NCBI GenBank assembly: GCA_963666835.2
Contig: CAXXGO010000005.1
Span: 32,001-96,000 of the forward strand
Source: Phycisphaerae bacterium
GTDB lineage: Bacteria > Planctomycetota > Phycisphaerae > UBA1845
Length of the DNA: 64,000 bases
Direction of reading: 5' to 3'
A model generated the notes under the pieces. That model did not search any database. It was not told the origin of the DNA and was given only the letters and a program-made list of their open reading frames with translations. The stretch's first letter is position 1; each line of letters starts with the position of its first letter. A program made the position numbers and the translations under genes. Shown here piece by piece: positions 1,766 to 47,285 of this stretch.

Positions 1766-2473
1766 CTACGGGTCGCGCTTCAGTATCCGCACCACCGCCG
1801 AGTGACTCCACTGCTTCGACCTGCCCGTCTTAGTAGGGATGCCGCGTTCCGTCAGTTTTTCGGCGATGGCCACGAGGGTGTTCCCGCTCACCCGCATAGC
1901 CTGTATGTCCCGGATTACGGTCTGCTCGGGTTCGTTGGGGATGAGCGCTATCCCGTTTTCGGCCAAGTCGAAACCGTAGGGGACCGTCCCGACTCTCTGA
2001 CCGTTGGACTTCTTCACGGCCATGGCGGACTTGGTTCGCTCGCGGGTGAGGTTGCGTTCCATCTCAGCCGCTCCGGCCAGGACTACCAGCATGAACCTCC
2101 CGGCCGCGCTGGTGGTGTCGATCGCGTTCCCGCCAAGATCGACCACGTGCAGGGCGATTCCCTTCTTGTCCCAACGCTCCACGGTGTTCAGGCAGTCGCC
2201 AGCGTTCCTGAACCCTCGATCGAGCTTCAACATGACCACCGCTCCGGCACGACGCTGCCGGAGACACTCCAGAAGCCGATTCCCGCCTTCTCTGCTGGCT
2301 AACGGCTTCCCGCCCGAAACCCCGGCGTCGACGATTATCTCGGCCAGCGACAAGCCCTTGAGCGTTGCATAGGCCCTGATCCTCTCGGCCTGCGCTTCCA
2401 ACCCGAGCCCGCTACTCGCCTGCTCTTGGGTGCTGACGCGGGTGTACGCGATAGCCTTGGTATTCGTGTCCAT
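1766..2473 (-). CDS. Serine recombinase (resolvase catalytic domain plus short recombinase-type DNA-binding domain)
   Basis: YTRVSTQEQ catalytic Ser motif, KLDRGFR, GRFMLVVLAGAAEMER, G..PYGF. Confidence 0.93.
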   Translation of the reverse strand: MDTNTKAIAYTRVSTQEQASSGLGLEAQAERIRAYATLKGLSLAEIIVDAGVSGGKPLASREGGNRLLECLRQRRAGAVVMLKLDRGFRNAGDCLNTVERWDKKGIALHVVDLGGNAIDTTSAAGRFMLVVLAGAAEMERNLTRERTKSAMAVKKSNGQRVGTVPYGFDLAENGIALIPNEPEQTVIRDIQAMRVSGNTLVAIAEKLTERGIPTKTGRSKQWSHSAVVRILKRDP

Positions 2474-2491
2474 CTTCTTCCCTCCCCGGAG

Positions 2492-3187
2492 TTAGGCCGC
2501 TACCGGAACGGCAGGCGACTTGACCGGCTTGCCCTTGTATCTACGAAGCGTGTCGGGAAGCTGGTCGATAGCGTCCCGGATGTTGTTGCCCTTTAAGTCG
2601 ACTCCACACTTGCCTTGAACGTAGGAAAGGAACCGGAAACCCGGTGGAATCGGTAGGTTCGCTTCTCGCGCGATTCGCTCCAGGTGCTCAGCAACGGCCG
2701 GAGCGCTGGGTTTGCGGAACCGGAACCGGCGCCACCGACTGGCCAGTCCGTCGACTTCGCTCGCCCACGTTGTGCTTGTCGTGGTCCCGATGACGATGAC
2801 GTGATTCGGCAGATTCTCCAGAAGCCCCAGTAACAGGCGCTGGCAATCTCTATTAAGGTGTTGAATCTCATCGACAATGAAGGCGCGTCGCCCCGATCCG
2901 CCCATAGCGAAGCAATACATCGACGCTTCCAGGGCACGGAAGTCCGCAACGCACACGGACCGGCTATCGATCCGCTCGATACTCATATCGGAGCAACCAA
3001 GAGCGCGAGCGGTGACGTAGGCCGCGCTAGTCTTGCCGCAACCGGCAATCCCGTCCGACTCGAATAACCAGCGCTCGCCGCAACCCTCAAACAGCCAATC
3101 GTCCGAGCAGGCTTCCCGGATGTCGTCGATAATCGGCTGGCCGATGAAGTCTTCCCACGTTTGCGGTCGGTATCGTTCACTTAGCAT
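2492..3187 (-). CDS. Short DnaX/clamp-loader-clade AAA+ ATPase
   Basis: LSERYRPQTWEDFIGQ N-terminus, Walker A GIAGCGKTS, Walker B IVDEIQHL, SRC-like SRW. Confidence 0.85.
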   Translation of the reverse strand: MLSERYRPQTWEDFIGQPIIDDIREACSDDWLFEGCGERWLFESDGIAGCGKTSAAYVTARALGCSDMSIERIDSRSVCVADFRALEASMYCFAMGGSGRRAFIVDEIQHLNRDCQRLLLGLLENLPNHVIVIGTTTSTTWASEVDGLASRWRRFRFRKPSAPAVAEHLERIAREANLPIPPGFRFLSYVQGKCGVDLKGNNIRDAIDQLPDTLRRYKGKPVKSPAVPVAA

Positions 3188-3375
3188 GGCGTTCCCCCAA
3201 GGTAACAGGCAGTCGGGATTATCCCGGCGTAGTAGGTGTCCAAGCCGACATCGTCGGTCACGAAGTAGGCGTCCGCGTTATCGCAGTCCTCAGTCGGATC
3301 GAAGACCACGTAGACCGGTTCGTCGCTCTGGCGACTCCGGCGGATTGCTCGGCTTGTGGCCTTTGACAGTTTCAT
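3181..3375 (-). CDS. Hypothetical protein (64 aa)
   Basis: Translationally coupled within the ardC operon; preceded by the repeated GAAAGGCGGTG RBS. Confidence 0.65.
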   Translation of the reverse strand: MKLSKATSRAIRRSRQSDEPVYVVFDPTEDCDNADAYFVTDDVGLDTYYAGIIPTACYLGGTPC

Positions 3376-3653
3376 TAGGACACCGCCTTTCTCGGATGTC
3401 CCCCGGCTTTGGCGAATTCGTAAACCTTCCGACTGCCGGTAGCGTCACAACATCGGCAGGGTGTGCCGTTCCAGCTTGCCCCATGTCCACTACAGGCAGG
3501 GCAGACGTCATCCCGCAAACGAGCGGTTTCGCAGTCGACGTGCCTTGCTCCCTGTCCGCGCTGCCAGTAAATCGAATCGCCAACGCGAATCTCACCGCCA
3601 CAATCCCGACACTTTCCGGCATACTTCGCTCTGATTCTTCTCGCGCCGATCAT
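3375..3653 (-). CDS. Small Cys-rich zinc-finger protein
   Basis: AKYAGKCRDCGGEIRVGD...HVDC, CPACSGHG...CRCCDATG; coupled TAATG junctions. Confidence 0.75.
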   Translation of the reverse strand: MIGARRIRAKYAGKCRDCGGEIRVGDSIYWQRGQGARHVDCETARLRDDVCPACSGHGASWNGTPCRCCDATGSRKVYEFAKAGGHPRKAVS

Positions 3654-3913
3654 TACGCCACCGCCTTTCCGGAGAGAACCGTGAAGCGGTGTCGGCCTAC
3701 CGTGGCTATTTCCTGGAGATTCTCAGCGTCGATCGAACCGTCAAAACAGACGCATTGCCAGCGCACTAGCATTGCCAACGCTTCGATAGTGCATGTCACG
3801 GGTTTGAAGTCCGCCAGTCCGAACCCGTCGAAGATCGATAAGTCGTCCATGTTCAACGGCCGATCGGACCGGGCGATAGCCAATGCGGCGTCAAGGTCGA
3901 TAGCCTTCATCAT
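3653..3913 (-). CDS. Hypothetical protein
   Basis: ATGA overlap with the ardC stop, RBS GAAAGGCGGTG; MMKAIDLDAALAIARS... Confidence 0.7.
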   Translation of the reverse strand: MMKAIDLDAALAIARSDRPLNMDDLSIFDGFGLADFKPVTCTIEALAMLVRWQCVCFDGSIDAENLQEIATVGRHRFTVLSGKAVA

Positions 3914-4773
3914 GCCACCGCCTTTCGGGTCTTGAGGGTCTCGACATCGTCGATAATCTCCCGCGCCGTCTTGCTGATTCGTTCGAGACTCTCGCGCAAG
4001 GCTTTCGAGTCTCCGTCCCAAAGGGCGATATAGCGACTTGCCCGGACTTCGACGTCAAGACCGAAGTGCGCACAAACCACGTAGGCGACCGATTCGGCTT
4101 CAAGCTCCGCCATATTGCGGGTTAAGGCGCCCCGATTCGTCTTGTGTAACGCTTCGTGGGCTAGCTCGTGGGCGAGCGTTTTTGCCTGTTGTCCCGTTTC
4201 GTGGGTGTTGTCGACTTCGATTGAACCGCCCTTGCTGACTCCGAAGACTCCGTCGTCAATCCGCTTGAATTCCAGGGCGATTCCGCGATTCGTGGCAACC
4301 GCTTGCAGATTGGAAAGCAGCGTATCGGCTGCAACGTCGATCGTCGGACAGTCGACGCTTGGTAGGTCTTCCCCGTCGGTTTGCGAAACGTCGAAGACAT
4401 GAACGGCACGGAAGGACACGCCGTGAACGGTCTCTTCCTCCCCGGACGCGGTTGTGACCGCTTTCGCGTAGGGACGCGGTGCGAAGATCATAATGCCGCG
4501 CTCGCCCTTGCGGACATTGCGCCGGAACTTCGTCTTCCAGGCCTTGAACCCCGCAACGCGAGACGCTCCAGGGCATTGCGATAGGATCAAGAGGGAATTG
4601 TGCCAGGAATACCGGTGAAACTTGGCTTGAATGGTCAGATAGGCTTGGAACGTCTCCGAAGCTCGAACCGCGTCAACCGCGTTTGCCAGGGTATCCAGGC
4701 TCTTATCGATTGTCTCGCGGAGTCGCTTCGCCTTGTCCTTCGTCGATTCTCTTGCTACAGTTTCCATCGTCAT
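3910..4773 (-). CDS. ardC: ArdC-like antirestriction ssDNA-binding protein with zincin HExxH domain
   Basis: FHRYSWHNSLLI...VAGFKAWK...VRKGERG...VFDVSQTDG (ArdC N-domain); HELAH...ELEAESVAY...YIALW. Confidence 0.85.
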   Translation of the reverse strand: MTMETVARESTKDKAKRLRETIDKSLDTLANAVDAVRASETFQAYLTIQAKFHRYSWHNSLLILSQCPGASRVAGFKAWKTKFRRNVRKGERGIMIFAPRPYAKAVTTASGEEETVHGVSFRAVHVFDVSQTDGEDLPSVDCPTIDVAADTLLSNLQAVATNRGIALEFKRIDDGVFGVSKGGSIEVDNTHETGQQAKTLAHELAHEALHKTNRGALTRNMAELEAESVAYVVCAHFGLDVEVRASRYIALWDGDSKALRESLERISKTAREIIDDVETLKTRKAVA

Positions 4774-4798
4774 TAGCTCCTTAGTAGCTAGTGGCCAC

Positions 4799-4828
4799 GG
4801 TCCCGGATGTTGGTAGCATCGCGGGACC
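4799..4828 (-). other. Hairpin in the ardC 5' leader
   Basis: GGTCCCG-GATG-ttggtag-CATC-g-CGGGACC inverted repeat. Confidence 0.5.
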
Positions 4829-4848
4829 ACTTGTCATTCCACACCCTC

Positions 4849-4877
4849 ATTATGACACACGTTTGACGCAAAGGCAA
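4849..4877 (-). promoter_or_regulatory. Sigma70-type promoter of the ardC operon
   Basis: TTGCCT-N17-CATAAT on the minus strand. Confidence 0.65.
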
Positions 4878-5465
4878 GAAGAAAATTCGACAACCGTTCC
4901 GTTGTGCAAAAAATGCCAGGATGTGGCACCGTATACAATCTTAATCGGGCAGCCATGTTTCACCCTTGTTTTCAAGGCGTTTCCGGCTGTGTTCCGGTTT
5001 GTTTCCGTATTGTTTGCGGCGAGTCTATGCCGGATGAAGGTGCCTTCAGTCGATGACATAAGCGCGGCACGTTTCAGAGGAAAGGTGGCGACATCGAAGG
5101 CGGAGCACGTCCGGACGGGCGAATCAAGAGACGTTGGGACCCCTATCGGCCTGGAAAAGCTGAACCACACCCCCCGGTCGATCCTGGCGGTACCATCTAG
5201 ACTTAACCCCCCTCCGACGCGCGAGCAGTTTCCGGGCCGGGCAGGCCTGGATAACGCTGGCGGTCCTTTCCGGAGTCGGGTATCGTGTCGGCCATGATCC
5301 GCAAAACCATCCTGTTCGGGTGTGCGTTCGGGGCGATCGTCTACGCCGTTGCCTGGGTTGTTCTGGCCTTTCCGGTCTGCCTTCGCGATAATGGGCCATC
5401 GATTTCGGCTACCGGCTCTTGCTGGCGAGCCCTGCCGCAGCAGAGGTGATGTGAAAGTGAGTAGA

Positions 5466-5843
5466 ATGGAAGAACAAAGATCCAGTGATGAACAAGTCAT
5501 AGACGAGAAGCTATGGCAAGCCTTCTGGCTAGGAGTATGCGTTGCTAATGACCCCTTCGATGTTGAGCCAGAGAAGCTTGGCTCTGATAAGGTCTCTTCC
5601 CTTAGAGCCACGGCCGCTGCCATCCGCGCGAAGGCGCAGAATTTGAGGAGACTAGATGCGTCACTCCGCGAAATAGCGGAGGGCAAGTCTTTGCTGGGGC
5701 CAAACGTCACCGACGGTCTTGACCCGAAGGTCAAACGCCGACTAGACCAACAGGAGCGTGAAAGGCAGAAGCTAGCCCAACGATTAGTTGCGTTTCTGGA
5801 CAGAAAAGACGAGGAGCTGAACCGTTACCGAGAACAGAAGTGA
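5466..5843 (+). CDS. Hypothetical coiled-coil protein
   Basis: ORF MEEQRSS...; charged helical C-terminus; GTGA overlap with the next ORF. Confidence 0.55.
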   Translation: MEEQRSSDEQVIDEKLWQAFWLGVCVANDPFDVEPEKLGSDKVSSLRATAAAIRAKAQNLRRLDASLREIAEGKSLLGPNVTDGLDPKVKRRLDQQERERQKLAQRLVAFLDRKDEELNRYREQK

Positions 5844-6112
5844 GAGCCATTGCTGAACGACCTTGCTTTCTCGCAAGCGCAGTTACGGAATCTCGGAAGC
5901 CCGGCATCCGAGGGACAGTCGGTATGACTCTTCTGCTACTGCTCCAGCCGTTCCTGTTTCTCGTCTCTGTCTACGTCACGCTCGCCTTCATTCGTGACCC
6001 GGCGCGACGCTGGCGCCGGAAAAAGCGAGGCCCGTGCCTGACGTGCGGGTACAGCCTGGAAGGGAACGTGTCGGGAGTGTGTCCGGAATGCGGTTCGGAG
6101 ATCGCGCCATGA
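5840..6112 (+). CDS. Membrane protein with C-terminal zinc ribbon (possibly truncated)
   Basis: TM segment, basic stretch, CLTCGYSLEGNVSGVCPECG. Confidence 0.65.
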   Translation: MRAIAERPCFLASAVTESRKPGIRGTVGMTLLLLLQPFLFLVSVYVTLAFIRDPARRWRRKKRGPCLTCGYSLEGNVSGVCPECGSEIAP

Positions 6113-6678
6113 TTCGCGAGATTCTCAGCATGCTGCGCGCTGCCATTATTGTTGGGTTGACGTTGGGGGCGGTGTCGACGGCATCTGTCGGGGCGTTCCT
6201 GGTTCATGGATCATTATGGCGGTACAAGGGGCCGTCAATCACTGGGGGGGGGCCGACAACCACCCCCTGGTGGTGCGACATCTTCTTCTTGGAAAACGGC
6301 GTGGTATACTTCGATGTTGTTGCATGCCAGCCTTACGAACTGGAATACTGTGTTGGTTTTCCGAGGTCGGCATCTGATGGTCTCAGTAGAGGATCACGCT
6401 TTGAACGATTCATCGGTCTCAACGTCTTCTACCCAAAGGGTCCGTCGTGTGAATGGGGCCTGTCCGCCTACGTATCGCCCAGATTCCTTTGGGTTATCGC
6501 GTGTCTTCTGGCAACCTACCCGGCCGTCACATTCATGCGCGGTCCGCTCCGCCGTCGCCGTCGGCGCAAACGCGGCCTGTGCGTCGGCTGCGGCTACGAC
6601 TTAACCGGCAACATCACGGGTGTCTGTCCCGAGTGCGGCGTCCCGATCGATCCCAAGCAGGATGAGGCTACCGGATGA
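6109..6678 (+). CDS. Membrane protein with C-terminal zinc ribbon
   Basis: Two TM segments; RRRRRRKRGLCVGCGYDLTGNITGVCPECG; ATGA coupling. Confidence 0.8.
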   Translation: MIREILSMLRAAIIVGLTLGAVSTASVGAFLVHGSLWRYKGPSITGGGPTTTPWWCDIFFLENGVVYFDVVACQPYELEYCVGFPRSASDGLSRGSRFERFIGLNVFYPKGPSCEWGLSAYVSPRFLWVIACLLATYPAVTFMRGPLRRRRRRKRGLCVGCGYDLTGNITGVCPECGVPIDPKQDEATG

Positions 6679-7175
6679 CCACCATGCGGACCATCTCTCG
6701 GAAACGACGAATCCTGAAGTGGGCGGGGTCGGTGGCGTACGTTCTTTTGGCGACAACGCTCATCTTATCACGATGGTGGACCGCGGGTTGGCTCGGCGGG
6801 ACCTACATTGTAGTCACCAAAGGTGGCGCGGTAGTGGTCACCGTTCTTGACCAGACCGGACGTGAACTTGGCTGGAAGGTCCGCCGGAACGTCCCCACTT
6901 CACGCATGGACTGGTGGTTTCGCCGCACCCCGGCGAACCTCTCCGGGATGTCGGTCTTCGCCACCCCTCTCTGGGCACCCCTGGTTGGGATCGGCCTCCC
7001 GACATTCTTGGCATGGCGGCGCGATCGCCGGATTCCGCCCGGTCACTGTGCGAGCTGCGGTTACGATCTGACGGGCAACGTCTCGGGCCGGTGTTCGGAG
7101 TGCGGAACGCCCGTGCCCCAGCAAACAACTTGCGACGACGGGATACCCCGGTCTCCGGAGGATGAAAACAAGTGA
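6675..7175 (+). CDS. Membrane protein with C-terminal zinc ribbon
   Basis: PLWAPL...RRIPPGHCASCGYDLTGNVSGRCSECG; ATGA coupling. Confidence 0.8.
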   Translation: MTTMRTISRKRRILKWAGSVAYVLLATTLILSRWWTAGWLGGTYIVVTKGGAVVVTVLDQTGRELGWKVRRNVPTSRMDWWFRRTPANLSGMSVFATPLWAPLVGIGLPTFLAWRRDRRIPPGHCASCGYDLTGNVSGRCSECGTPVPQQTTCDDGIPRSPEDENK

Positions 7176-9422: not shown

Positions 9423-9941
9423 TCACCTACGGACTCCGAACCCCTGCAGGAGAATCTCTCTGGCTGCTTCATCAGCTGCCTCAAGTGTCGAGAAGACCGG
9501 AATGCCAAACCGGAGGTCAAAAGGTCCGCGAAGCCGTGCAGTATACACCAGCTTGTCGTCGATAGTAATGCCAATCATCTTGCCGAGACGGCCCTTCGAC
9601 CAATGTCTGAATCGATCCCTGCACAATTCTTGCACCCAAACGATGACGCCGAAGTTCCCATCTGGAAAGTCCATCGTTTCGATCCGGTCACAGTCACAGC
9701 AGGCAAGTGAAATCCCGGCTTCTTCTTCTCGATACCAGACCGATCCGTCTTCGCCAACGATCCTTACGGTGTGGGCATCAGTGGGGATGCCGCTGAGGCC
9801 CAACACCTGCACGTAGTCAGGGTTTCCGGACGGCGCCACCTTGACCGGCGCACTCGTCGTATCCGTGTTACGCTGTTGATTCCCTACAAACAGAATCAAG
9901 ACAATCAGTCCGACCACCGCTATACCCGTGATTACTCGCAT
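9423..9941 (-). CDS. Exported protein with SecDF-head-like domain; putative immunity to the orphan Rhs toxin
   Basis: Start overlaps the orphan Rhs stop; TM/signal segment; GITIDDKLVYTARL...FSTLEAADE. Confidence 0.72.
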   Translation of the reverse strand: MRVITGIAVVGLIVLILFVGNQQRNTDTTSAPVKVAPSGNPDYVQVLGLSGIPTDAHTVRIVGEDGSVWYREEEAGISLACCDCDRIETMDFPDGNFGVIVWVQELCRDRFRHWSKGRLGKMIGITIDDKLVYTARLRGPFDLRFGIPVFSTLEAADEAAREILLQGFGVRR

Positions 9942-11212
9942 TTGCCTACATCACCCTCGCCGCACTGAAGAGGCCCTGGATTATTAGTCCCCAGCGGACT
10001 ACCGTGTACATCACAGAGCGTCTCGCCATACCCTATTGTCTCGCAGGACAGAACCGCTCTCATGTTGTCAAAAACGGCCTTCCCATAGATATGCTGGGAT
10101 TTTCCTGTGCCCTCGATCGTCTTCTCTTCTCGGTACTCACCTGCTCCGTCGTCGCAATCCCGCACACACGTGCGGACACATATCTCCTTCTTCCGGCAAG
10201 CCCTGCCACTCCAGTCAATGCGGCTATGATCATAGCTGCTGTAGCCGCGAAGTAACACTTCTGCAGTCGGCAAATAGAACACACTTCTCATACCGAGTGT
10301 CATGTCGGCATCGTCCGCCTCGCCGTTGTCGGCTCTGAAGCCAATGACCTTTACACCAACCTTCACGGTGTTGAGGATCGTGAAATCGACATCGCGGACT
10401 GTGGCCCTCGCCTCTTTCAGCGTCCGTTGCAGGAGCCCCCTGATCAACCATTTCTCGGTTGACTTCGCCTCTCTCAGATACGTCCCGCGCACTGTTACAG
10501 TCTGGAAACCATTGGATACACGCAAACTCGTCCAGGGCCCACACTTCATGCCGAGAACATCCGTGTGCCGGGCGGGATTACTCTGAACATAGTGGTACAG
10601 ACTCATCCCATCACCGTATTGCGCCGCAACACGCGCCGCCGGTTGTACGGCAAACGTGACCGCATTATGCGAGGCGCCGCTCGTGAGCACCAACCCCGTC
10701 CCGTTCGGGTCCGCCTGCAGGAAGCGGCTTAGCAGGGGATCGTAATAGCGGGCGCGGTTATAGTAGAGGCCGGTTTCGCGGTCAAGGATCAGGCCGTTGC
10801 GGCCGAGGGGGATCAGCAGCTCGGTTAGATCGGCAGGGCCGTTGCCTTCTGCGTTGCCGGATCCGTCCTCGATGTGCTGATACGCACCGTATGGGGCGTA
10901 CGAATACTGCTGCTCGAGGTATCCCAGGTGATCGGTCACGCCGACGACGTCGTAGTTGGCGTCCTGCAACACGAAGTGCGGGTCCGGATCGGCGGCACCG
11001 GTGTCGTAATATGCCACGACCTCATCGATATAATCCAACCCGTAAACGTACCGGCGATGCGGCTCGACGGCCGTGTCGCTCGCGCTGGTCTTACGGTGCT
11101 CCAGCACGCGGTGGCCGTCGTAGTAGAAATAGTCGCCGTAGCCGGTCGTGTCGAGCGGGGCTCCGGAGTTCTCCACCCGTTTGCGAATCCGCCGGCCGAG
11201 GGCCTCGTAATC
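9932..11212 (-). pseudogene. Orphan Rhs C-terminal module (core end plus alternative toxin domain)
   Basis: YEALGRR...YYDGHRVLEHR...TGLYYNRARYYDP; PARHTDVLG boundary then an unrelated C-terminus; DNA nearly identical to 13008-13450; no good start codon. Confidence 0.85.
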
Positions 11213-11256
11213 GAAGCTCAGCGAGATTCGGGCGCTGGTCGGGAAGAGCCGATTGC

Positions 11257-11475
11257 TCAGCGAGTCAAGTACAGGATCATTACACCGGTTCTAACCAAAC
11301 CAATAGCCACCCCCAGCGCCGCGACAATTGTGTACCCGCGCGACGGGCTGATTGCGATTCCCCACGCCCCATAAGCCAGAGAACCCAGCATCAAGGGAGG
11401 GGCGCAAACCACGAATGACAAAATGCCGCACGATACAGAAATCGCCCCGCTTGTCCTTGCCCAATCAATGTCCAC
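11257..11475 (-). CDS. Small hydrophobic hypothetical protein (possibly a remnant)
   Basis: 72-aa ORF with two TM segments between the immunity gene and the orphan module. Confidence 0.35.
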   Translation of the reverse strand: MDIDWARTSGAISVSCGILSFVVCAPPLMLGSLAYGAWGIAISPSRGYTIVAALGVAIGLVRTGVMILYLTR

Positions 11476-11579
11476 GCGTATGCAGACTCCTGTGATATGA
11501 GTACGCTCAGCAGCAACCCGATGTCCGGAGGATGCCGTATCTCCGAACTACCGCACTCACCCTGCGCCTCGCCCCCCCG

Positions 11580-12368
11580 TCAGTCCGACCTATCGCGCCC
11601 TTCAGCTCCTGCGACATTCCTTGCTCCCTCCGACGGCGAACCTTCAGCAAACGAACGACAGCCAAAGGCCGTTCCTAGTGGAAGGAAACTGCTCATTCGG
11701 CCAGTGCGATCTTCTATGGCAGCGTAAGCAGATACCTGCTCACCAATAGCATACGGAAGAACCGACACATCTCCGATGTTGACCCGGAGAAGTCCGTCAG
11801 CATCCGCGATGCCGTGTTCTTTGTATAGGTCCCAAGATACCGGCTCCAGTCTCCACATCCTAGATGATAGGATAGAATTGTCTTTCTGCTGCTGTGTATC
11901 CTCAATCAACGTGTGAACGATTGCTGCGTCTGGACCACAAATTATAATGTGATATCGGTAAGTCTCTCGGTTTAAATTGACCCAGTCTAACCCAAGAACA
12001 GGTTCCCCATCCATTGTGTAGTTCGCCGTAGCCATTAGTAGTACCGGTGGTCGTCTTTCCGGCAGCGTGCCCTCATCCAGTAGGCGGAGCGCCGCCAGAG
12101 CCTGCGCAACATGAAGGCTGCTGTCCCTGTACCGGATAGTGCTTCCCTGAATGACCCTGTGCAAAAAACGTCTCGTACTCTCAATCTGCTTGTGGAGCGT
12201 GTTTTTGTAATCGCGCGCGATTGCCGGGACATCTGGAAGCGCAGTATAGCCAGCGTGCGGCGCATCTGTGTCCGAGTTACGGTTGCATGCTCCTGCAAGC
12301 ATGATTAGAGCGACAACCGCACCATATCCACACGTTAGTGTAATTGCAGCTAGCGTTATTCGGGGCAT
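11580..12368 (-). CDS. Putative Rhs immunity protein (membrane-anchored or lipoprotein-like)
   Basis: Start overlaps the Rhs stop; hydrophobic N-terminus ending LAGAC; visibly AT-richer than the Rhs core. Confidence 0.7.
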   Translation of the reverse strand: MPRITLAAITLTCGYGAVVALIMLAGACNRNSDTDAPHAGYTALPDVPAIARDYKNTLHKQIESTRRFLHRVIQGSTIRYRDSSLHVAQALAALRLLDEGTLPERRPPVLLMATANYTMDGEPVLGLDWVNLNRETYRYHIIICGPDAAIVHTLIEDTQQQKDNSILSSRMWRLEPVSWDLYKEHGIADADGLLRVNIGDVSVLPYAIGEQVSAYAAIEDRTGRMSSFLPLGTAFGCRSFAEGSPSEGARNVAGAEGRDRSD

Positions 12369-15300
12369 CTTTTTTGCGTTGCGCATTTCTGTTCCACCAA
12401 CGCCTGAGTCTTTATCGCGCAGTCGTTGATAAGCTTCTTCTGGAGTTCAGAACTAAACCCAAGGTGCGATTCGCCGGGCTCTACCGACGGGAGCACCCTT
12501 ACAGGACATCGTTTCCACTTCCAGCCGTCGATCGCCTCTGCCCAGAAAGACGACGACCACCAGGGATCGACGCAGGCTTTGCACCGATATCGATACCAGA
12601 TGCTAAAACCGCCCTTGCGTGTGAAGGCGCGGATCAAAGGAACTGCCGCAATCGCCATCGAATTCTCCTCGAAGTACTTTGGCGCGTTCCATTTGTTGCA
12701 TTCAAACACAATGGGACCCTTGAAGGATTGGGCGTATGTCACAGCCATGTAGACGTCGGCAGCAGCCAACGAGAATCCAACGTACTTCGCTTCGTCCGGA
12801 TTAAGTAATCCGGGAACGACCTGCGTTTCCAAGTCGTAACAGACGTCACCTTCGTTGCACAGTCCACGTGGATCGCGGTTGTTGACAGGGCGTCCGCTGA
12901 GGTACTGGTAGAGGTTCATTCCATCGCCATACTGAACTCTGGCGCTGAGCGAAAAACTCGTACCAAAGGTCTGGCCTCCGTAAGCTAAGCTGCAGCTCTG
13001 CCCCATTCCCGTCCCGTTCGGGTCCGCCTGCAGGAAGCGGCTTAGCAGCGGATCGTAATAGCGGGCGCGGTTATAGTAGAGGCCGGTTTCGCGGTCAAGG
13101 ATCAGGCCGTTGCGGCCGAGGGGGATCAGCAGCGCGGTTAGGTCGGCGTCCATGTTGTTATATCGCACGCCGGATCCGTCCTCGATGTGCTGATACGCAC
13201 CGTAGGGGGCGTACGAATACTGCTGCTCGAGGTATCCCTGGTGATCGGTCACGCCCACGACGTCGTAGTTGGCGTCCTGCAGCACGAAATGCGGGTTCGG
13301 ATCGGCGGAGCCGGTGTCGTAATACGCCACCACCTCATCGATATAATCCAACCCGTAAACGTACCGGCGATGCGGCTCGACGGCGGTCCCGGCCGCGTTG
13401 GTCTTGCGGTGCTCCAGCACGCGGTGGCCGTCGTAGTAGAAGTAGTCGCCGTCCCATTCTTGGTCTGAAGGATCGAACACGCCTTTGTAGATCCGCCGGC
13501 CGAGGGCGTCGTATTTGTACCAGGCGACAGCGCCGCCGGAAGTGCCGGTGAAGGCATCGCCGCTCACGGCCAGGGTGCCTCGCTCGTTGACGCGTACTAC
13601 CCGATTCCAGGCGTCGTACTTGTAGAAATGCTTGTTATCGAGGATCACGTTCCCGGCCTTGTCGTAGTGGAAATCGGTGGTGTCGAAAGAGGTCGGGGGC
13701 TGGGGATGTGCGTCATAGTGATGTTGCACGATCTGGTTCGTCGCGTCGGTATCGTGATGGGTATAGGCGGTAACGGTGTCACCGCTGGAGTACCCGGGAT
13801 TCCCGGACGAGAACGTGTAATCGATCACGCTTCGCTGATTCGTCTGGTCCCCGGACCAGTTTCCCAAAACGTCCAAATTCCACGCCCGGCCGGTCCCGCC
13901 GTTGTCTATCACCGGTACTGATGTATCGAGCACGCCCCGTTCGGCGTAGACCAGCCGGTTCAGATTGTCGTAGCCATACAGGAACGACCGATTGTTCGCG
14001 TGCCCGGCCTGGTTGATCTTGGCGTACGTGCGGTTGCCGTTGGCGTCGTAACCGTACTCGTAACGATGAAGGGTAGAGGCACCGTTGCGCTTGAAGCCCA
14101 TGCTGGTGATGCGGCCGAAGCGGTCGAGGGCGCTGGCGGTCGTGTAATCGAGCGCGACCGCGTTACCACCCCAAGCCTTCTTTACATTTCGCCCGCCGCC
14201 GGTAGCGGTATAGGCGATCAGCGGATTGCTCGTACCGTCGACCTCGGACACGCCGGTCATGCGGCCGATGGCGTCGGTCCAACTCTGGCCGTTGTACGAG
14301 AACTCCACCGCGAAATCAGCCGTGGCATCGAGCTCGTGCGGGTACGAGATGCCGGTTACGCGGTTCTGGTTTCCTTCCCACTGCCAGTTGTAATCGACCT
14401 TCCTGGTCATGGACTCTGACGCCGCGGTTCTCGGATTCAGCGTCTCGCTGATCAGGTTGCCGAAGGCGTCGTACTCGAAGAGCACTTGGTTGGACAGGGT
14501 GTCCGCGGAGCAGTACTGCTGGGCCGAGGTTAGCTGGCGTCGGGTGTTGTAGCCGAAGGCGAGGTGGTCGATGGTTTTATAGCAGGCGTCGGAGATGGAG
14601 GGTGGATCACCGGCCGGGTAGCTGACCCGCACCTCCGTCGGTTGATTCCCCGGCGAGGCCGAGCAGGAGGAACAGCCCGCGTTGCCGTCGTAATAGAAAT
14701 CAAGCGAGACGTCCCGCTGGTCCGTCCGCCGGGCGAGCCGGCCGTCGACGGTGTATTTGAACGTCAGGGCGTTGAGCGGATCCGGCTGCCCGGTGTCCCT
14801 GGCCGGGTACTGGATCACCCCGACCAAAGTCGGCGCGTGAGAGACCGCCGTGGACGGACTGTGGTCCGTCCCGTCGACGAGTTCCGCGCTGTAGACGTAG
14901 CGGGTGGCTTGAACCGTTGCGTTGGGGACGGTCACCTCGGTGGCCGCGAAGTCCGCGTCGGCGTCTTCGGTCCAGGTGATGGATGTCGGCGTGATGTCCA
15001 GGTAGGAGGCGGGGTTGCTGGGGATGATAGCAACCATCATGTCGGGCAGGCCGCCGCGGGTGTAGTGATGCGCGGTGTAGCGGACGGGGCCCTCGTAGTT
15101 CGCATCGCCCGGGTTCCAGTTTTCGGCCACCAGCAGGGTGTGCCCGAGCAAGTCGAACCAGGTCTTGGTGACGATGCCCTTGGGATCGCGGACGAAGTCG
15201 CGCCGACCGGCGGCGTCGTAGTCGTAGAGCGTGACGAGGGCGTTGCCAGTTAAGTTTGTGGTGCCGATCACGTACTTGGACCCGTCCCAAGTTGGTGCGT

Positions 15301-18300
15301 CAGGCCAGCCGCTCGGATCGCCTGTGAACCCGGTGGGCGGATTGAAGCTCGTCGTGTAGCCGGTCGCGGCGTTCGTGCCGAAGTTGGCCGTCGCGACAAG
15401 CCGCTTTGTGTACGGATCATACCAATTATAGGCGTATGTGATAAGAGCGCCGGAATAGGGGCCCATGATGCCCGTGGTGGCGTAGTCGTGCATGCGATCG
15501 CGGCGTATCTCGCAAAGCACGTTTCCGAAGGCATCGTACGTACGTTCTGTGCGGGTTAGCTCGTAGCCGCCGCAGGTGCCCGGGGTGTCGGGGTGCTCTT
15601 CACTGCAGAAGCTGGTGCGCACCACCCGGCCGAGCGAGTCGTACTCGTTGACCGTGATGCCGGTGGGAGTAAGGCTGGCCGTGACGCGGTTGAGGTCGTC
15701 GCGGAAGGTGCGGGTGTAGGTGTAGTGGTCGGGCGCGCCCGGCTCGTACGTTCTCTGTTCGTAGGTGCGGCCCCGCTCGTCGTACAGCGTTAGGGAAAGG
15801 GTCTGCGGGGTTTGCAGCCCCTCACGCGTGCAGACCTGGTTGACCGCGATTTCCGGCGCGAGTTTTGTCCAGGCTTCGATCTCGTCAAGCGTGGGGAGGA
15901 TGCCGTCGGGTGGCCAGGTGGCCACGATTACGGGGCGATCCAGATTGTCGAAGACCGTCGCGGTGGCCGAGAGCAGCGCGGGGTCGGCCCGGCCGTGCCC
16001 GGCGCCGTCGACAACAACCTCCTTGGTGATAACGGCTCGGCCGCGCCAGTCGTAGACGTATTGGGTGTCTCGGCTGGGCGTGTCTTCGTTGAAGGCGGTG
16101 TTGCAGGCTTCGGGGCTGTCGGTGAAGCGACGCGTGCGAACGAGCCTGCCGGCGTCGTAGGGGAAGTCTTCATTGCCGGGAACGCTTTGGTCGTTCGATT
16201 CGTAGTCCGGATCGCCGTCGTTGTAGAGGCGCTCTTCGGACAGGACCATATCGTCGTCCTCGGTCGCGAACACGCGCGGGAACCAGTCTGCGCAGCCGTC
16301 GGCCGAGCCGTTGAAGACCTTAGTGGGCCGGCGTTTTGAGTCGAACAGCATTCGTTTGATCGTGCCGTCCGGCTCCTTCTGCCGCGCGATGCGGTCTTCG
16401 AGGTCGTACGTGAATTCGCGGACGACCGTCCGGCGGTCCGGGCCGGAGTCTGGGGGCTGCTTGAAGTCGTTGTAGCTGATGTCGTGGGTCGGCTTGAGCG
16501 TGGAAGCCTGGCGGTATTCCTTGGCGGTCCGGGCGAGGGTGATGATCTGGTCGGCGGCACCCGGTGGCCAATTGATGGTCGTTTCATCTCCTTGGGTCTG
16601 GGTCGGAATGGGTGGCGTCCAATTCTCGGTGTTATTGCCCTGAACGTAACCCAAACAGGGAGTACTCGAGCCGCATGGTATCCAGTTATCGCCGGGGACT
16701 ACGCCGTCTTCGCCCGTCCAACCGGCTATCGCGCCATCGTGATCATAATCGAGAAGAGAGACGGCCCAGCCGAAATCGTCGATCTTGTCCGTCATGTTCT
16801 TGCCGGTCGCGCCCTGCCTGGCTGGGTTCCAGGCGATAACGCGCTGTTCGACGAACCTGCCGCCCTTGTCGACGACCTTCACGGTCGTCGTGCCGTGGAC
16901 CTGAACGTCGCTATTGCCCACGTGGACCCCGGTGTGCTCGATGGAGTATGAATAGGGGTCGCGCCATTGGAGGGAGACCGCTCCGTTAACCTCCTCATAA
17001 CGAATCGTCCGGTTGCTCAGAACCGCATAATCGGTTCTCGTCATGTCGCCTTCAACGAAGTCTGAAGCAGTCCACTCGTTGGATTCGATGGAGTGGTCAA
17101 GCCTGTCCAACACATCTGTCGTGAGCTGCCCCACGATCCGTGATGTCACTCTCTCCGAGGACCCCTCGCGAAGCAGCAGCGTGGTGATGTTCTTCGCATT
17201 GGCGCTGCCTTTCCGACCGTACGATCCGCCGGACGTAGGCCAGTTGAAGCCGGCTATTGCCGGCGTGATTCCGTCTCCTTCCTCGTCCACATGGATCTTA
17301 CCCGTGTCTATATCGCGGACTTCGATGATGTTCCGACCGGATTCGTCGTAGCCGGTGTAATCGTAATAGAACGGCATAGCCGGCTGGGGGGGGTCGTCAT
17401 CAGCACCGGCAACACCGGCACCGCGTCCGTGCAGGCGCAGCCGCCCGCTGCGGTCAAAATACCACAGCTCGAGGGCGATATTTCCGGTTCCGCCCTGATC
17501 TGTGCTGACAGCCTCCTCCCAGCGCCATTTCCATTCGACGGAGTTCTGGTGGTCATTCTTCTGATGGAACTCGTAATGGTAGTTCACCAGACTCACGCCG
17601 TCCTTGGTTGAATCGCCACTGGCGATTGCGGGGGGGATGGCATCATACGTGACCTCGGCGGCGTCTTGATTGTGCAGGTCGACGTAACGCAGGTAGTCGT
17701 TGCAAGTGCCGCCGTCGGGGCAGGAACAGCCGGAGGTGTCATCAGTGCACTCGGCCGCCTCTTCGTCCAGGCACGTTACCTCGGCACCGATTGTCCCGGC
17801 CGGGTCGTGAATACACCCGCTGGTGCTTTCAGTCGAGAAAGTCAAGTTGCTACCGGCCATAGGGGCGTAGTACGTTGCTTCGGTCTCGGGCAGGTCCAGG
17901 ACCGTCGGCTTATTTGGGCCCGAGCCCTCAGGCGTGCGCTCGAAGTGCTTCGTCAGGGTGACGACGTTAAGCTGATCCGGCGTCACCCGCTGGACCGGGA
18001 CATCTTCGACTACGTCGGGCGTCTTGCACTGCTGATTGTAGAGGTTTCCGCCGGCGGAGCCCTTCGCGATACCGGTAAGGACCGTGTGCCAGCCGCCTTC
18101 GCCGCCGAACAACTGCGTAAGCACTCGGCCGGTGGTTTTCACCGCGTGCTGTCCGCCGTCGCGGAGGGCGGCCACCCAACTTTCGTCGAAGACCTGTCCG
18201 GTCTGCCCGCGTTTGTTGACCAGTTCATACTGTTGGTCGTCCACCAGAGAGGTCTGGATGCCGTCGTATCCGGGCGTAAGAATAAGTCGATCGCTCAGGG

Positions 18301-34688: not shown

Positions 34689-34791
34689 CCGCCCGAGGAC
34701 CGCCATGCTAGTAATGCCAACGCCTGCGTAGACGGTCGCGAGTTCCTACATGGACGGCGCAGGTACGCAATCGGAAAGGCGCGTCGATTAG

Positions 34792-35657: not shown

Positions 35658-35900
35658 ATGGAACAAGCACGGACTTCTGTGGAACGGGAGCAGCTTGAGC
35701 AATCCGCCAGATACAGCGCCTCCCCCGCAGGAACATCGCATACGCAATCCTGGAGGTATCGCTCCACCGGAGGACCGCTCCTACCCGTTCGACTCGGCGT
35801 CCGAGCCCCGTCTTGGCGAGTGGGCGAGCTGCGCGCCTGGCTGGAAGCGGGATGCCCTGAACGGCGGACATGGTTGCGGATGAAGGGGGTAGCGCAATGA
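35658..35900 (+). CDS. AlpA-like HTH regulator (divergent N-terminus)
   Basis: GGAGG RBS; PVRLGVRAPSWRVGELRAWLEAGCP. Confidence 0.65.
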   Translation: MEQARTSVEREQLEQSARYSASPAGTSHTQSWRYRSTGGPLLPVRLGVRAPSWRVGELRAWLEAGCPERRTWLRMKGVAQ

Positions 35901-36754
35901 GCACACACCCCGACTGGAACCGCGTTTCTCGCGGTCAACTCTGCCCAATCTGCCAGAAACCCGACTGGTGTTCCGTGGCTGTTGACGGTTCGGCTGCGCT
36001 GTGTCAGCGGGTCGAGTCGGAGAAACGAGTCGGCGACGCCGGGTGGCTGCACCGCCTAAGCGACAATCAACACCGGCCAGCGCAAGCGAGGAGAGTCATG
36101 TTGGAGGACGAACATCGCTCGGACTTCGGGGGATTGGCGGACGACTACAAATCGAAAGTTGACCTTGTGAGGCTGGAGGAACTTGCATCCTCGCTCGGTC
36201 TTGAGGTCGGCAGCTTGAACCGGCTCGACGTCGGCTGGGACGGCGAGGCCTGGACCTTTCCGATGAGGAACGCCGGCGCCGACGTAGTCGGCATCAGACG
36301 ACGCCTTCCCGACGGGCGGAAGCTGTCTGTGAAAGGTGGGCATGAAGGACTCTTCATTCCCGTACACCTTCCCGAATCCGGGGACTTGATCATCGCGGAA
36401 GGGCCGACGGACGCCGCAGCACTCCTGGACATGGGGTTTGACAGCGTTGTAGGTCGCCCGAGCTGCTGCGGGGGCACGAGGTATCTCATCGACCTTGTCA
36501 AACTCCGCGGGTCTCAAGAGGTCGTTGTTGTTGCGGACCGGGACGGACCGGGCAGGCGCGGAGCCGATTCGCTGGCATCGGTGTTGATCGCGTACGTGAG
36601 GAGGGTTCGCGTCATTGAACCACCGGCAGGCGTCAATGATGTACGGGCTTGGCTGACGTCGGGCGGAACACGGCAGGATGTTGAACATGCGGTCAAAGCC
36701 GCGCCCGTCCGGGAGATTCACGTTGAGACAAGGATGGTATCGGTCTATGGATAA
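35897..36754 (+). CDS. Primase (Zn finger plus TOPRIM)
   Basis: CPICQKPDWC...C; IIAEGPTDAAAL; VVVADRD; DVRAW. Confidence 0.88.
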   Translation: MSTHPDWNRVSRGQLCPICQKPDWCSVAVDGSAALCQRVESEKRVGDAGWLHRLSDNQHRPAQARRVMLEDEHRSDFGGLADDYKSKVDLVRLEELASSLGLEVGSLNRLDVGWDGEAWTFPMRNAGADVVGIRRRLPDGRKLSVKGGHEGLFIPVHLPESGDLIIAEGPTDAAALLDMGFDSVVGRPSCCGGTRYLIDLVKLRGSQEVVVVADRDGPGRRGADSLASVLIAYVRRVRVIEPPAGVNDVRAWLTSGGTRQDVEHAVKAAPVREIHVETRMVSVYG

Positions 36755-38306
36755 GCGAACGGATTCGGTGGCGCTGGATTGGGAGAACACTGGCGATGTC
36801 AAAGCCAAGATCACAGCGCGCATAGGTGGTGACCCCGTACATGCTGACAAGTTTGACCCTGCCAGCGCATCGCGACGCGGGCAGTTTATTGGGGTTCTGT
36901 GCAAGAAGTTCCCTGGTATTGACCCTGAAGAGGTCGACAAGGAGCTAATGAAGATCGGCGACGAGATGGCTGTAGGACCCGCGCCCCCGGGCGACACCGG
37001 CGTTCAGGACCTTCTGAGCGATATGCCTGAGTCTGCTAGGAAGGAAGCTCTGGCAATGTTGCGGGATCCCCAGCTTATCCAGCGCATCGTGGATGATATC
37101 GCCACGCTCGGCGTCGCCGGGGAAGGCAAACTCGCCGCAATGGTCTACTTGATTGGGACATCGAGGTTGCTCAACAGACCCCTGGCTGGCATTGTCCAGG
37201 GGCTCACATCATCGGGGAAGAGCTACGTTGTGGACGTTGTTGCCCGCCTATTCCCGGAGGAAACGATCGTTCGCGCACACAGGATAACTCCGCAAGCGCT
37301 TGTGCACATGCCGGAGGGAGAGTTGGTGCATCGCTTCGTTGTGGGTGGTGAACGTAGCCGTCGACAGGACGATTCCACTGCCGAGGCAACGCAAGCTCTA
37401 CGAGAGATGCTCTCTGACGGGTGTCTCACGAAGCTGATGCCGGTCAAGAGCGGCAATACCATCGAAACGGTGAAGATCTATCAACCAGGTCCGATCTCCT
37501 ATGTCGAGTCGACTACGCTGCAGGAGATCCTGGACGAGGATCGCAATCGGTGCATCGTGCTGAATACAGATGAGCGGCCCGAGCAAACGCGTCGAATCAT
37601 CGAGGCAATGTCGGCCCGCAAGGCTACGATAGAAGATGTTGGGTGTGATGATGTAACCCACAAGCACCATGCCGCACAGCGGATGTTGCACCAGTGCCGC
37701 GTCGTCATCCCGTTCGCGGAACACTTGGGCGATCTGTTTCCCTGTACGCGAACCGACGCGCGCCGATCGTTTGGGCACCTTCTGTCCGTGATTGAGGCCA
37801 TTACGCTCCTGTATCAGTACCAGCGTGTTTCTGATCCCGGCGAGGGTGTCACCATAGAGGCCACACGTGCAGATTACGAGGTCGCTCGGTACCTGGTCGC
37901 CGAGGCATTCGCTCGAACACAGTCGGGCGGCGTGAGCGACGCGGTACGTCGGTTCCACGGTCGCCTACTTAGTTGGGCGAACGGACGCACGTTTACTACG
38001 GCGGACATAGGTTCCCACGAGGAGGTAATCAACGACCTCCAGACAATCCGAAGTTATGTCCGGGTGTTGGCCAATGCTGGCTTCCTTGAGCTCGTCGACC
38101 CCAACCGAGGGAGCAAACCCGCCACATACAAGCTCGCCGCGGATCCGCCTGGCAACGCTGAGTTGGCTGGGCTGCCCGAAGTAGATGCGGTTTTCGATAG
38201 AATGGATAATGCCCCACGTCACCGCGTCGACGCACAAACCACTACGACAGTAGGGTTTTCGACGCGGGAAGGTGTTTTCCTCGTCGATTCCGCGTCACCA
38301 ACGTAG
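36747..38306 (+). CDS. Primase-associated P-loop NTPase/helicase
   Basis: TSRLLNRPLAGIVQGLTSSGKS Walker A; DEDRNRC; C-terminal wHTH-like region. Confidence 0.8.
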   Translation: MDKRTDSVALDWENTGDVKAKITARIGGDPVHADKFDPASASRRGQFIGVLCKKFPGIDPEEVDKELMKIGDEMAVGPAPPGDTGVQDLLSDMPESARKEALAMLRDPQLIQRIVDDIATLGVAGEGKLAAMVYLIGTSRLLNRPLAGIVQGLTSSGKSYVVDVVARLFPEETIVRAHRITPQALVHMPEGELVHRFVVGGERSRRQDDSTAEATQALREMLSDGCLTKLMPVKSGNTIETVKIYQPGPISYVESTTLQEILDEDRNRCIVLNTDERPEQTRRIIEAMSARKATIEDVGCDDVTHKHHAAQRMLHQCRVVIPFAEHLGDLFPCTRTDARRSFGHLLSVIEAITLLYQYQRVSDPGEGVTIEATRADYEVARYLVAEAFARTQSGGVSDAVRRFHGRLLSWANGRTFTTADIGSHEEVINDLQTIRSYVRVLANAGFLELVDPNRGSKPATYKLAADPPGNAELAGLPEVDAVFDRMDNAPRHRVDAQTTTTVGFSTREGVFLVDSASPT

Positions 38307-38410: not shown

Positions 38411-38677
38411 ATGTGGACCATGGAACTGGAGCTGGATCGAATCTTCGACGCTGACAGGCTCATGGGGGTCTTACGCTCTCGCCTCACATGGTCGGGGCAG
38501 CGCCATGCCTCTGCTCGCGCCATTATGCCTGACGACCTCCCCGGTGATTGGCGGGTCGAGTGGGAGGAGCGCGCGGCCATCCGAGAGTATGACGGCCTGC
38601 AGCATCGGGAGTACGCCGAGGCCGAAGCCCTGACCGAGATCCTGCAGCGGATGCGGGCTGCCGGGGAGGGCGTATGA
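38411..38677 (+). CDS. Small phage/MGE-type hypothetical protein (start uncertain)
   Basis: EWEERAAIREYDGL..EYAEAEA; ATGA overlap with the next gene. Confidence 0.6.
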   Translation: MWTMELELDRIFDADRLMGVLRSRLTWSGQRHASARAIMPDDLPGDWRVEWEERAAIREYDGLQHREYAEAEALTEILQRMRAAGEGV

Positions 38678-39135
38678 GGAAGCGCCGCCTTGTCTACGAG
38701 TCCGTGATCTCCGCCGAAGAAGCCGGGGCCGTCGCTGGATTATCGGAGACCGAGATTCGGCGGATGATGCGATCCGGCCAGATCAAGGGGCGAACCGAGC
38801 AGCCTATGCGGATTTCGGTTGAGTCTCTGGCGGATCATCTTCAAGTGTCGGCAGAGTCAATTCGTCAAACGCTTGCCGAGCTGCGGGGTCTACCGGTGAG
38901 TAGTGCCGAGACGTCGTCAACGCGGAGCTGTGTCCCAGCATCCGTTGAACGGAAGTCAAAGGCATTACCCGTTGCGACCGACCGGACGCGATCTTCCGGA
39001 AGTCGGCCACCGTCAACTCGGTCCAGGGCGACCCGGCAGCCTGGCGAACGCGAGAGTACCACGTCCGCAACGTGTAACCCGGAAACAGAGGCATTGTTGG
39101 CAAAGTTTGATCGAGTAGCCGCTGGAGGGGAGTGA
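38674..39135 (+). CDS. Excisionase-like HTH protein
   Basis: ISAEEAGAVAGLSETEIRRMMRSGQIKG...MRISVESL. Confidence 0.65.
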   Translation: MRKRRLVYESVISAEEAGAVAGLSETEIRRMMRSGQIKGRTEQPMRISVESLADHLQVSAESIRQTLAELRGLPVSSAETSSTRSCVPASVERKSKALPVATDRTRSSGSRPPSTRSRATRQPGERESTTSATCNPETEALLAKFDRVAAGGE

Positions 39136-40021: not shown

Positions 40022-40094
<73 letters not shown>

Positions 40095-47138: not shown

Positions 47139-47180
47139 AATAAAGAACGGGCCGGAGCACGCGCACGCGCCCCGGCCCGA
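47139..47180 (-). terminator. Intrinsic terminator (repeated at 53746 and 60358)
   Basis: CGGGCCGG...CCGGCCCG stem plus TTCTTTATT on the minus strand. Confidence 0.7.
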
Positions 47181-47285
47181 CTATTACTCTTTTGTACAGG
47201 GTGTCTTGCCGACGTCACGGTATCACAATTACCGACCGGAACGCTGCCTGGTCGGTCCGACCGTGCCCTGTATCAGCTCGGCGTT

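Follow-up and report, generated by a model that had tools for sequence, protein, structure and literature searches.

An operon of ardC, a collarless clamp-loader-type ATPase and a short serine recombinase in tRNA-integrated islands of a Phycisphaerae bacterium

Conjugative plasmids carry establishment operons. Anti-restriction activity has been demonstrated for the ArdC protein of R388 (PMC7213743), and the establishment genes of p576 are expressed briefly, with an operator just above the -35 box (PMC8708921). Tycheposons have a tRNA-targeting tyrosine integrase and list a small serine recombinase among their gene labels (bioRxiv 10.1101/2020.12.28.424599). Clamp-loader subunits join through a C-terminal collar (PMC3643586), and in clamp loaders the arginine finger of gamma, Arg169, acts in trans (PMC11044049). 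These statements, like the others that we cite below, follow the accessible parts of the papers named. Here we describe an operon that combines ardC, a collarless ATPase of the clamp-loader clade and a short serine recombinase. It lies in a 64,000-nucleotide stretch (the window) of Phycisphaerae bacterium (GTDB UBA1845), assembly GCA_963666835.2, contig CAXXGO010000005.1, positions 32,001-96,000 of the forward strand. Based on its gene content and setting, we believe that it is on balance probably an establishment-and-resolution operon of tRNA-integrated, tyrosine-integrase islands found in one Phycisphaerae family.

Positions 1766-4767 of the minus strand hold six co-oriented open reading frames (ORFs), as a first-pass annotation of this DNA had described: ardC, ORFs of 86, 92 and 64 aa, an AAA+ ATPase and a serine recombinase. 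The stop and start codons of the three small ORFs overlap or abut, and the Pfam cut-offs are passed in the operon by the ArdC-N, AAA, Resolvase and partial Recombinase domains. The operon and its upstream elements are as follows, in the direction of transcription.

4886..4909, strand not assigned: palindrome of 11-2-11 bp, 8 bp upstream of the -35 box; 18/22 consensus matches
4849..4877, minus strand: sigma70-type promoter TTGCCT-17-CATAAT with an extended -10 TG; 9/12 consensus matches
4799..4828, minus strand: hairpin P1 of the 5' leader, with a second, weaker one after it that covers the ribosome-binding site (RBS)
3910..4767, minus strand: ArdC-family protein, 285 aa, with a single-stranded DNA (ssDNA)-binding N-domain and an HExxH zincin domain; the start is an ATG behind an RBS
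3653..3913, minus strand: passenger ORF, 86 aa, no family; in 8/102 loci
3375..3653, minus strand: passenger ORF, 92 aa, Cys-rich and zinc-finger-like; in 3/102 loci
3181..3375, minus strand: passenger ORF, 64 aa, no family; in 2/102 loci, which are only the two own-genome copies
2492..3187, minus strand: AAA+ ATPase of the clamp-loader clade, 231 aa, collarless, consisting of the AAA+ core and the lid
1766..2473, minus strand: short serine recombinase, 235 aa, catalytic domain and first half of the RD domain, without zinc-ribbon/coiled coil

A second copy of the operon block, 91% identical, is found in the same genome (G000:C3:438664-442129). By a crude count of codon changes between these two copies, synonymous changes exceed non-synonymous ones in all six ORFs (ardC 47/14, 86-aa ORF 11/1, 92-aa ORF 17/8, 64-aa ORF 3/2, ATPase 10/2, recombinase 31/11). 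The homology ends at the last codons of the recombinase and about 350 bp above the palindrome. A PADLOC scan gave no matches, and none of the public runs is listed as an RNA holder.

We counted gene neighbourhoods in 102 of 106 relevant loci, a set that leaves out the weak or distant L107 and L108, L063 (a duplicate of L035) and the context stretches of the own genome. The recombinase lies within 900 nt downstream of the ATPase in 65 of 82 informative loci (46/62 after clustering at 90% nucleotide identity), ardC lies within 2 kb upstream of it in 57/64 loci (39/45 clusters), and both accompany the ATPase in 44/53 loci and in 30 of the 39 dereplicated informative clusters. The first-pass annotation, which proposed this check, had presented ardC, a zinc finger, the ATPase and the recombinase as one gene set. 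The ardC and recombinase neighbourhood is conserved as it expected, but the zinc finger, a 92-aa ORF with three CxxC motifs and a match to phrog_1581 (E 1.4e-6), is a passenger outside the conserved gene set, present in 3/102 loci. The conserved unit is promoter, ardC, swappable small ORFs, ATPase and short serine recombinase.

The small ORFs between ardC and the ATPase are exchangeable. ardC directly abuts the ATPase in 29/57 loci, and in the remaining loci the gap is filled by many unrelated small ORFs, with ArdA occupying the variable slot in one locus (145.6 bits). In one contig from another run, the 92- and 64-aa ORFs are missing and the ATPase start follows directly on the end of the 86-aa ORF; such variant-joint contigs came from 2 studies, one of them possibly of the source sample. 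A 23-nt repeat containing the RBS and the stop/start overlap is present at three gene junctions (window 3372-3394, 3650-3672 and 3907-3929), and the passenger ORFs of many other loci share a KAVA/GGA-like tail, as at these junctions. The repeat could be a join for swapping small ORFs.

The ATPase belongs to a conserved family of short, intact proteins distinct from DnaX and RarA. A word-indexed search gave 263 homologous clusters, the best 120 of which are 214-241 aa long and mostly 71-80% identical; of these 120, all have Walker A, 119 Walker B, 117 SRW and 114 the GNNxR lid, and 3 have a CxxC. Aligned with E. coli gamma, the window protein matches over the N-terminus, which carries a DnaX-like RP motif, over Walker A/B and over SRC (here SRW), and skips the Zn module. 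The earlier description of a DnaX N-terminus, Walker A/B and an SRC-like motif without Zn module or collar thus holds; the lid motif GNNxR had been overlooked. In the same alignment, R84 pairs with gamma R105 and N112/R113 with S132/R133, putative DNA contacts that a check did not confirm. Walker A/B, the arginine finger and the lid arginine of DnaX are present, and the Zn module and the collar (domain III) are absent. The score against the DnaX model TIGR02397 is 63 bits, below its cut-off of 250, although DnaX models are the best named matches. The MgsA_C domain (PF12002), needed for membership in RarA/MgsA, a family also defined by DNA-stimulated ATPase activity at ends or gaps, gave no match at E 0.1. 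The predicted structure, of modest confidence (pLDDT 66.7), has E. coli gamma and RFC as its best folds. A homotrimer prediction scored 0.40 against a mark of 0.42.

When 1.84 billion proteins were searched with a profile, many further proteins of 200-250 aa came up, about 30% identical, that likewise end soon after an NNxR lid; some of these may be cut by contig ends. In a FastTree phylogeny of 132 rows, the window ATPase falls within an all-short clade of 16 (support 98), and 44 of the 47 short rows lie outside the host-DnaX branch in two groups, for which the tree does not imply a single origin. In the ESM Atlas there are many look-alike clusters of 211-237 aa, largely viral where the taxa are known, and no longer form of the ATPase was found among 2496 candidates, which is weak evidence. 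Searches of plasmid and phage records gave only about 26-34% identity, mostly to genes annotated as DnaX or clamp loader; a viral scan with the window ATPase gave no match, the distant alignment A2 contained no stretch of sufficient conservation to scan with, and a scan with P0186 returned only RFC-like genes of 310 aa at 29% identity. Automatic annotation names some homologs DnaX or RarA, JGI using RarA for some. Among 101 genomes from the family of the host, 23 have the ATPase (E 1e-25), against none of 288 sampled from other families of the class (E 1e-30), and the named records that carry it are Phycisphaerae/Planctomycetota metagenome-assembled genomes. In G366 the slot holds another collarless ATPase, 34% identical, amid kept neighbours (ardC 63%, recombinase 71%, palindrome 20/22, leader kept), and this swap suggests selection for the collarless type. 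The ATPase copies in L013 and G353:C82 carry an internal stop, suggesting that some islands are decaying.

The ardC product has both an ArdC-N domain (PF08401, 35 bits, cut-off 22.6) and an HExxH metallopeptidase domain (PF06114, 22.9 against 22; HELAH at residue 200), and it matches the anti-restriction family phrog_7245. PF18818 stayed under its cut-off (21.2 against 27.5). The recombinase scores 114.5 bits against PF00239, with R12, S14, D85, R86 and R89 invariant in 10 aligned homologs, and so has the catalytic serine and the Arg/Asp residues of the serine recombinase superfamily. PF07508 covers only positions 3-51 of 102, and the complete RD domain and zinc-ribbon/coiled coil of large serine integrases are missing. 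In IS607 transposases an N-terminal helix-turn-helix (HTH) precedes the catalytic domain; here the catalytic domain begins at residue 7, and NF033518 gave 37.4 against 110 bits. Resolvases such as that of Tn3 repress promoters that overlap their site.

Upstream of ardC, the first-pass annotation had placed a single promoter for the whole operon. The promoter is there, but its sequence alone is within chance expectation (2 found against 1.4 expected); when 29 upstream regions are aligned, however, most of them show by eye a TTGACA-17-TAnnnT-type promoter in this position. The leader is structured: in 39 sequences, 98.1% of the cells of helix 1 are paired and 8 of its 11 pairs have two-sided changes, slid controls being 30-49% paired. 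The covariation score was reached by none of 500 shuffles, a test inflated by the relatedness of the sequences and made with an RNAalifold structure derived from the same alignment. Against Rfam, no family came near its gathering score, and the two matches were at chance level. We also considered a Frpo-like ssDNA promoter and rejected it, as shuffled sequences fold just as well as the 498 nt upstream (z 0.29).

The palindrome is a candidate binding or crossover site of the recombinase and a candidate operator. Among 27 recombinase-bearing loci that have a leader, 24 show it at 16/22 or better. Neither of two recombinase-less loci with a leader does, and it is also absent from two further recombinase-less loci, L058 and L066; within the 2.6 kb of one recombinase-less locus, a 16/22 match lies at another place. 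The central dinucleotide is AC in 19/31. In favour of the recombinase as its binder, the palindrome goes with the presence of the recombinase gene, and the length of its arms agrees with the 13-bp area that the RD domain of serine integrases contacts beside the site centre (PMC3783163). No second strong copy occurs in either own island, and the genome-wide matches of 16-17/22 are a scattered background. In L021, two strong copies about 850 bp apart (5274 and 6120) flank an RCC1-repeat ORF, a segment that is possibly excisable or invertible.

Both copies of the operon in this genome are located in islands bounded by a tRNA gene and a repeat of part of it. The island of the window copy, of 43,156 bp, lies between tRNA-Arg(ACG) and a 43-nt repeat at G000:C5:28939-28981, outside the window; its tRNA end carries the integrase, a primase and an excisionase-like gene. 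That of the second copy, 44,890 bp long, adjoins tRNA-Pro(GGG), has a repeat of 51 nt and differs from the first in its integrase and replication genes. The island features outside the operon are given here.

40022-40094, minus strand: tRNA-Arg(ACG), attachment site (att) of the island; 43-nt direct repeat, 97.7% identity
38804..39913, minus strand: tyrosine integrase of the island; phrog_1, E 2.8e-35
38674..39135, plus strand: excisionase-like HTH ORF; PF12728 21.5 bits, under the cut-off of 27
36678..38306, plus strand: 542-aa ORF beside the primase, P-loop-like by eye, putative helicase; no Pfam/PHROG match
35870..36754, plus strand: Toprim primase-like island replication gene; phrog_239, E 9.7e-13, Toprim matches under cut-off
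G000:C5:29841-30191 (L002:7841-8191): PC4-fold ssDNA-binding-like gene near the distal att

The two islands share an 837-bp distal block at 93% identity (the module itself, 91%). The block encodes a 116-aa protein (model pLDDT 92) whose fold matches PC4 homologs of phage T5 and Burkholderia (E 8e-4 and 1.1e-3) and which recurs in 12/102 loci. Twelve of 24 longer stretches have an integrase-like match, and G353:C82 is a complete tRNA-to-att island of about 21 kb. The operon points away from the integrase in both own islands (G000) and in G305, G306, G353:C82, G366 and L041, and toward an integrase in L025, L032, L080 and L084. The island cargo is mostly secreted and membrane proteins, and restriction-modification genes are also carried by the island family. 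The first-pass annotation had missed this tRNA-integrated backbone, as it had the exchangeable small ORFs, the palindrome and the structured leader.

Several other features of the islands deserve mention. In both islands the operon is flanked by tandem genes for small membrane proteins with the C-terminal sequence CxxCGYxLxGNxSGxCPECG (window 5285-7175; L001:3603-8494), and such genes form arrays elsewhere in the genome; those scanned have no Pfam/PHROG family. Across the distal att lies a second tyrosine-integrase-like gene of 627 aa, probably belonging to a tandem element (L002:5109-6992; G000:C5:27109-28992), with a Toprim gene further left. Window 9932-22147 holds an RHS-like ORF of 3263 aa, an orphan C-terminal module of 414 aa and putative immunity-type ORFs, and RHS tips like these recur at C5:127-135 kb and C6:363-384 kb. 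Two related ORFs at 33591-35562 share a winged-helix-like C-terminal tail (by eye) without a family match and are candidate regulators. At 47139-62296 there is an 8.5-kb tandem duplication, 98.7% identical, possibly an assembly artefact.

What would such an operon do? An early, establishment role is suggested because ardC comes first, ArdA fills the slot in one locus, and distant relatives of the ATPase sit among small phage ORFs; that it belongs to islands is suggested by the tRNA-repeat-bounded islands of 43-45 kb around both own copies, the patchy distribution and the recurring PC4-fold gene. By analogy with p576 (PMC8708921), the sigma70-type promoter would fire briefly after excision or on arrival in a new cell, and by analogy with R388 ArdC (PMC7213743), ArdC and the exchangeable small proteins (ArdA once) would shield the incoming DNA from restriction. 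For the ATPase we offer only tentatively, at rather less than even weight, that it is an active enzyme that self-oligomerises on DNA, RarA-like rather than a loader subunit, its site of action probably being single-strand/double-strand junctions of island replication or integration intermediates. Its catalytic motifs are kept, the conserved trans-acting arginine finger implies oligomers (PMC11044049), and the absence of the subunit-joining collar makes entry into the host clamp loader unlikely (PMC3643586). The case is evenly balanced for the recombinase binding the palindrome, resolving multimers of the replicating circle and probably shutting the operon down.

Some of our data weigh against this picture of an island establishment operon. 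The ATPase is found without the recombinase in 16/62 clusters and without ardC in 6/45, and two viral contigs carry it without either. Half of the longer stretches (12/24) have no integrase match, several of them being short, ended by a contig edge or lacking the module, and four integrase queries were derived from the same loci that were scanned. No relaxase, type IV secretion system (T4SS), capsid or terminase was found in Pfam/PHROG scans of picked ORFs from both own islands; these scans covered ORFs of at least 75 aa, apart from some that overlap others, and a novel relaxase would escape them. The palindrome is missing near the leader in 3/27 recombinase-bearing loci, its consensus was drawn by eye mostly from recombinase-bearing loci, the recombinase-less group numbers four, and related loci are not independent. 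Any dimeric repressor could account for it.

The first-pass annotation had proposed an early anti-host module of 'leading-region' style in which a mini-DnaX may hijack or poison the host clamp loader. Its early character is borne out, but the hijacking or poisoning is unsupported, as the collar is missing. More broadly, an effector on the host beta clamp or clamp loader that unloads clamps or stalls forks in favour of the island or phage would be in keeping with the closest folds of the ATPase, which are clamp-loader subunits, with the collarless look-alikes common in phage clusters and among small phage ORFs, and with co-transcription with anti-restriction genes. We consider it unlikely, given that the collar that joins loader subunits is absent (PMC3643586), which bears less on action at the clamp alone, that conservation extends to every catalytic residue, presumably needless in a simple poison, and that the gene is intact in resident islands of 23 genomes. 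That the ATPase is instead a decayed fragment of the host dnaX, as its best named matches to DnaX models might suggest, is refuted: it is 29% identical to the intact 484-aa host DnaX, with a 23-residue gap over the Zn module, as against 71-80% to more than 100 short homologs, it falls in a separate clade, and its two copies differ by 10 synonymous and 2 non-synonymous changes. The first-pass annotation would have given up its proposal for such a fragment without short homologs or a conserved neighbourhood, and a family of 214-241 aa does exist.

Target-capture adaptor ATPases such as IstB, TnsC and MuB offer another model, in which ardC, the ATPase and the recombinase form a small mobile element that hops into islands, the ATPase serving as the adaptor. 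The homology between the own copies does stop at the last codons of the recombinase and about 350 bp above the palindrome, the ATPase and recombinase are tightly linked, and the distant ATPase of L116 is about 2 kb from a short serine recombinase. We think this quite improbable nonetheless: no terminal repeats or target duplications of the 3.5-kb unit were found when looked for, and the recombinase of L116 has a different C-terminus (HTH). The 837-bp distal block, at 93%, is so close to the module's 91% that a shared backbone with exchanged cargo is indicated. Least probable of the explanations that survive is a split clamp loader or split RarA for island replication, with the collar partner encoded elsewhere, which we regard as very unlikely. 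JGI does name some homologs RarA, and in the terminase-bearing viral contig L036 a 194-aa ORF 2 kb downstream is RarA C-terminal-like by eye (phrog_33349). This ORF, however, has neither a Pfam match nor a homolog in the other compared loci or the window genome, and no clamp or loader partner recurs among the neighbours.

Two viral contigs are worth noting in their own right. In L116:2203-10861, a single run of genes takes in MoxR-type AAA/DUF2201-vWA and the distant collarless ATPase, together with small ORFs, a tyrosine integrase and a resolvase-HTH recombinase. In L036 the RarA C-terminal-domain-like ORF (5728-6312) stands alone, 2 kb from a collarless ATPase.

Returning to the establishment-and-resolution operon, a wider and doubtful extension is that collarless ATPases of 200-240 aa may be an undescribed, widespread class of early island and phage proteins whose assembly would require DNA or the host beta clamp and which would remodel replication forks. 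In these islands a circuit would switch them on briefly, its serine recombinase serving both to resolve and to repress, and would include a new structured leader RNA. A collarless family whose catalytic motifs are intact lends itself to testing whether the AAA+ spiral can form on DNA without a collar, and what it does there. The palindrome and leader are two testable cis elements, and the operon marks a family of islands carried by roughly one in five of the genomes sampled from a single Planctomycete family.

DnaX (gamma/tau) and the phage DnaX-like subunits share with the ATPase the RP motif, Walker A/B, the SR-x arginine finger, the lid arginine and the fold. The ATPase differs in lacking the Zn module and collar, in its length (231 aa against 300-650 aa) and in its separate tree clades, and, unlike DnaX itself, it is mobile, patchy and additional to the host gene. 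RarA/MgsA (PMC5389604) is likewise a clamp-loader-clade ATPase that acts on DNA and is not a loader subunit, and serves as our proposed working model, but the ATPase has no MgsA_C and has DnaX-like motifs, and the host keeps its own RarA, besides a HolB-like match. Divergent, partly viral homologs of HolB, DnaX, RarA and RFC have been reported (PMC12153180), as here; compared by description only, the accessible text of that report gives no collarless form, Planctomycete link or ardC/recombinase context. The accessible text of a paper on polyvalent proteins (PMC5512222) does not contain 'clamp', 'AAA' or 'recombinase', and PMC5872134 is silent on the collar. As the first-pass annotation had suspected, our literature search found no description of this gene set, nor of a collarless clamp-loader family; subscription papers were mostly outside the search, as were supplements.

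In contrast to the establishment operons of conjugative plasmids (R388 ArdC, PMC7213743; p576/pLS20 EGeRS, PMC8708921), the carrier here is a non-conjugative integrated island, and no Reg-type repressor was seen, the candidate regulator being the serine recombinase. Among the scanned ORFs, there is no small terminase or capsid as in phage-inducible chromosomal islands (PICI) and phage satellites, and no relaxase, with or without T4SS, as in integrative mobilizable or conjugative elements (IME/ICE). Both own islands do have the tRNA-targeting integrase, att repeat and replication genes of tycheposons, without conjugation genes. The likeness extends to the partial-tRNA repeat, excisionase, primase/helicase, cargo and lack of capsid genes. 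The host here is a Phycisphaerae bacterium, the islands measure 21-45 kb, and the accessible text on tycheposons does not describe ardC, the collarless ATPase, the palindrome or the leader. By gene content, the carrier island appears to work like a cargo-type tycheposon. The module is real, conserved and apparently undescribed, yet it is a variant of known island and establishment systems.

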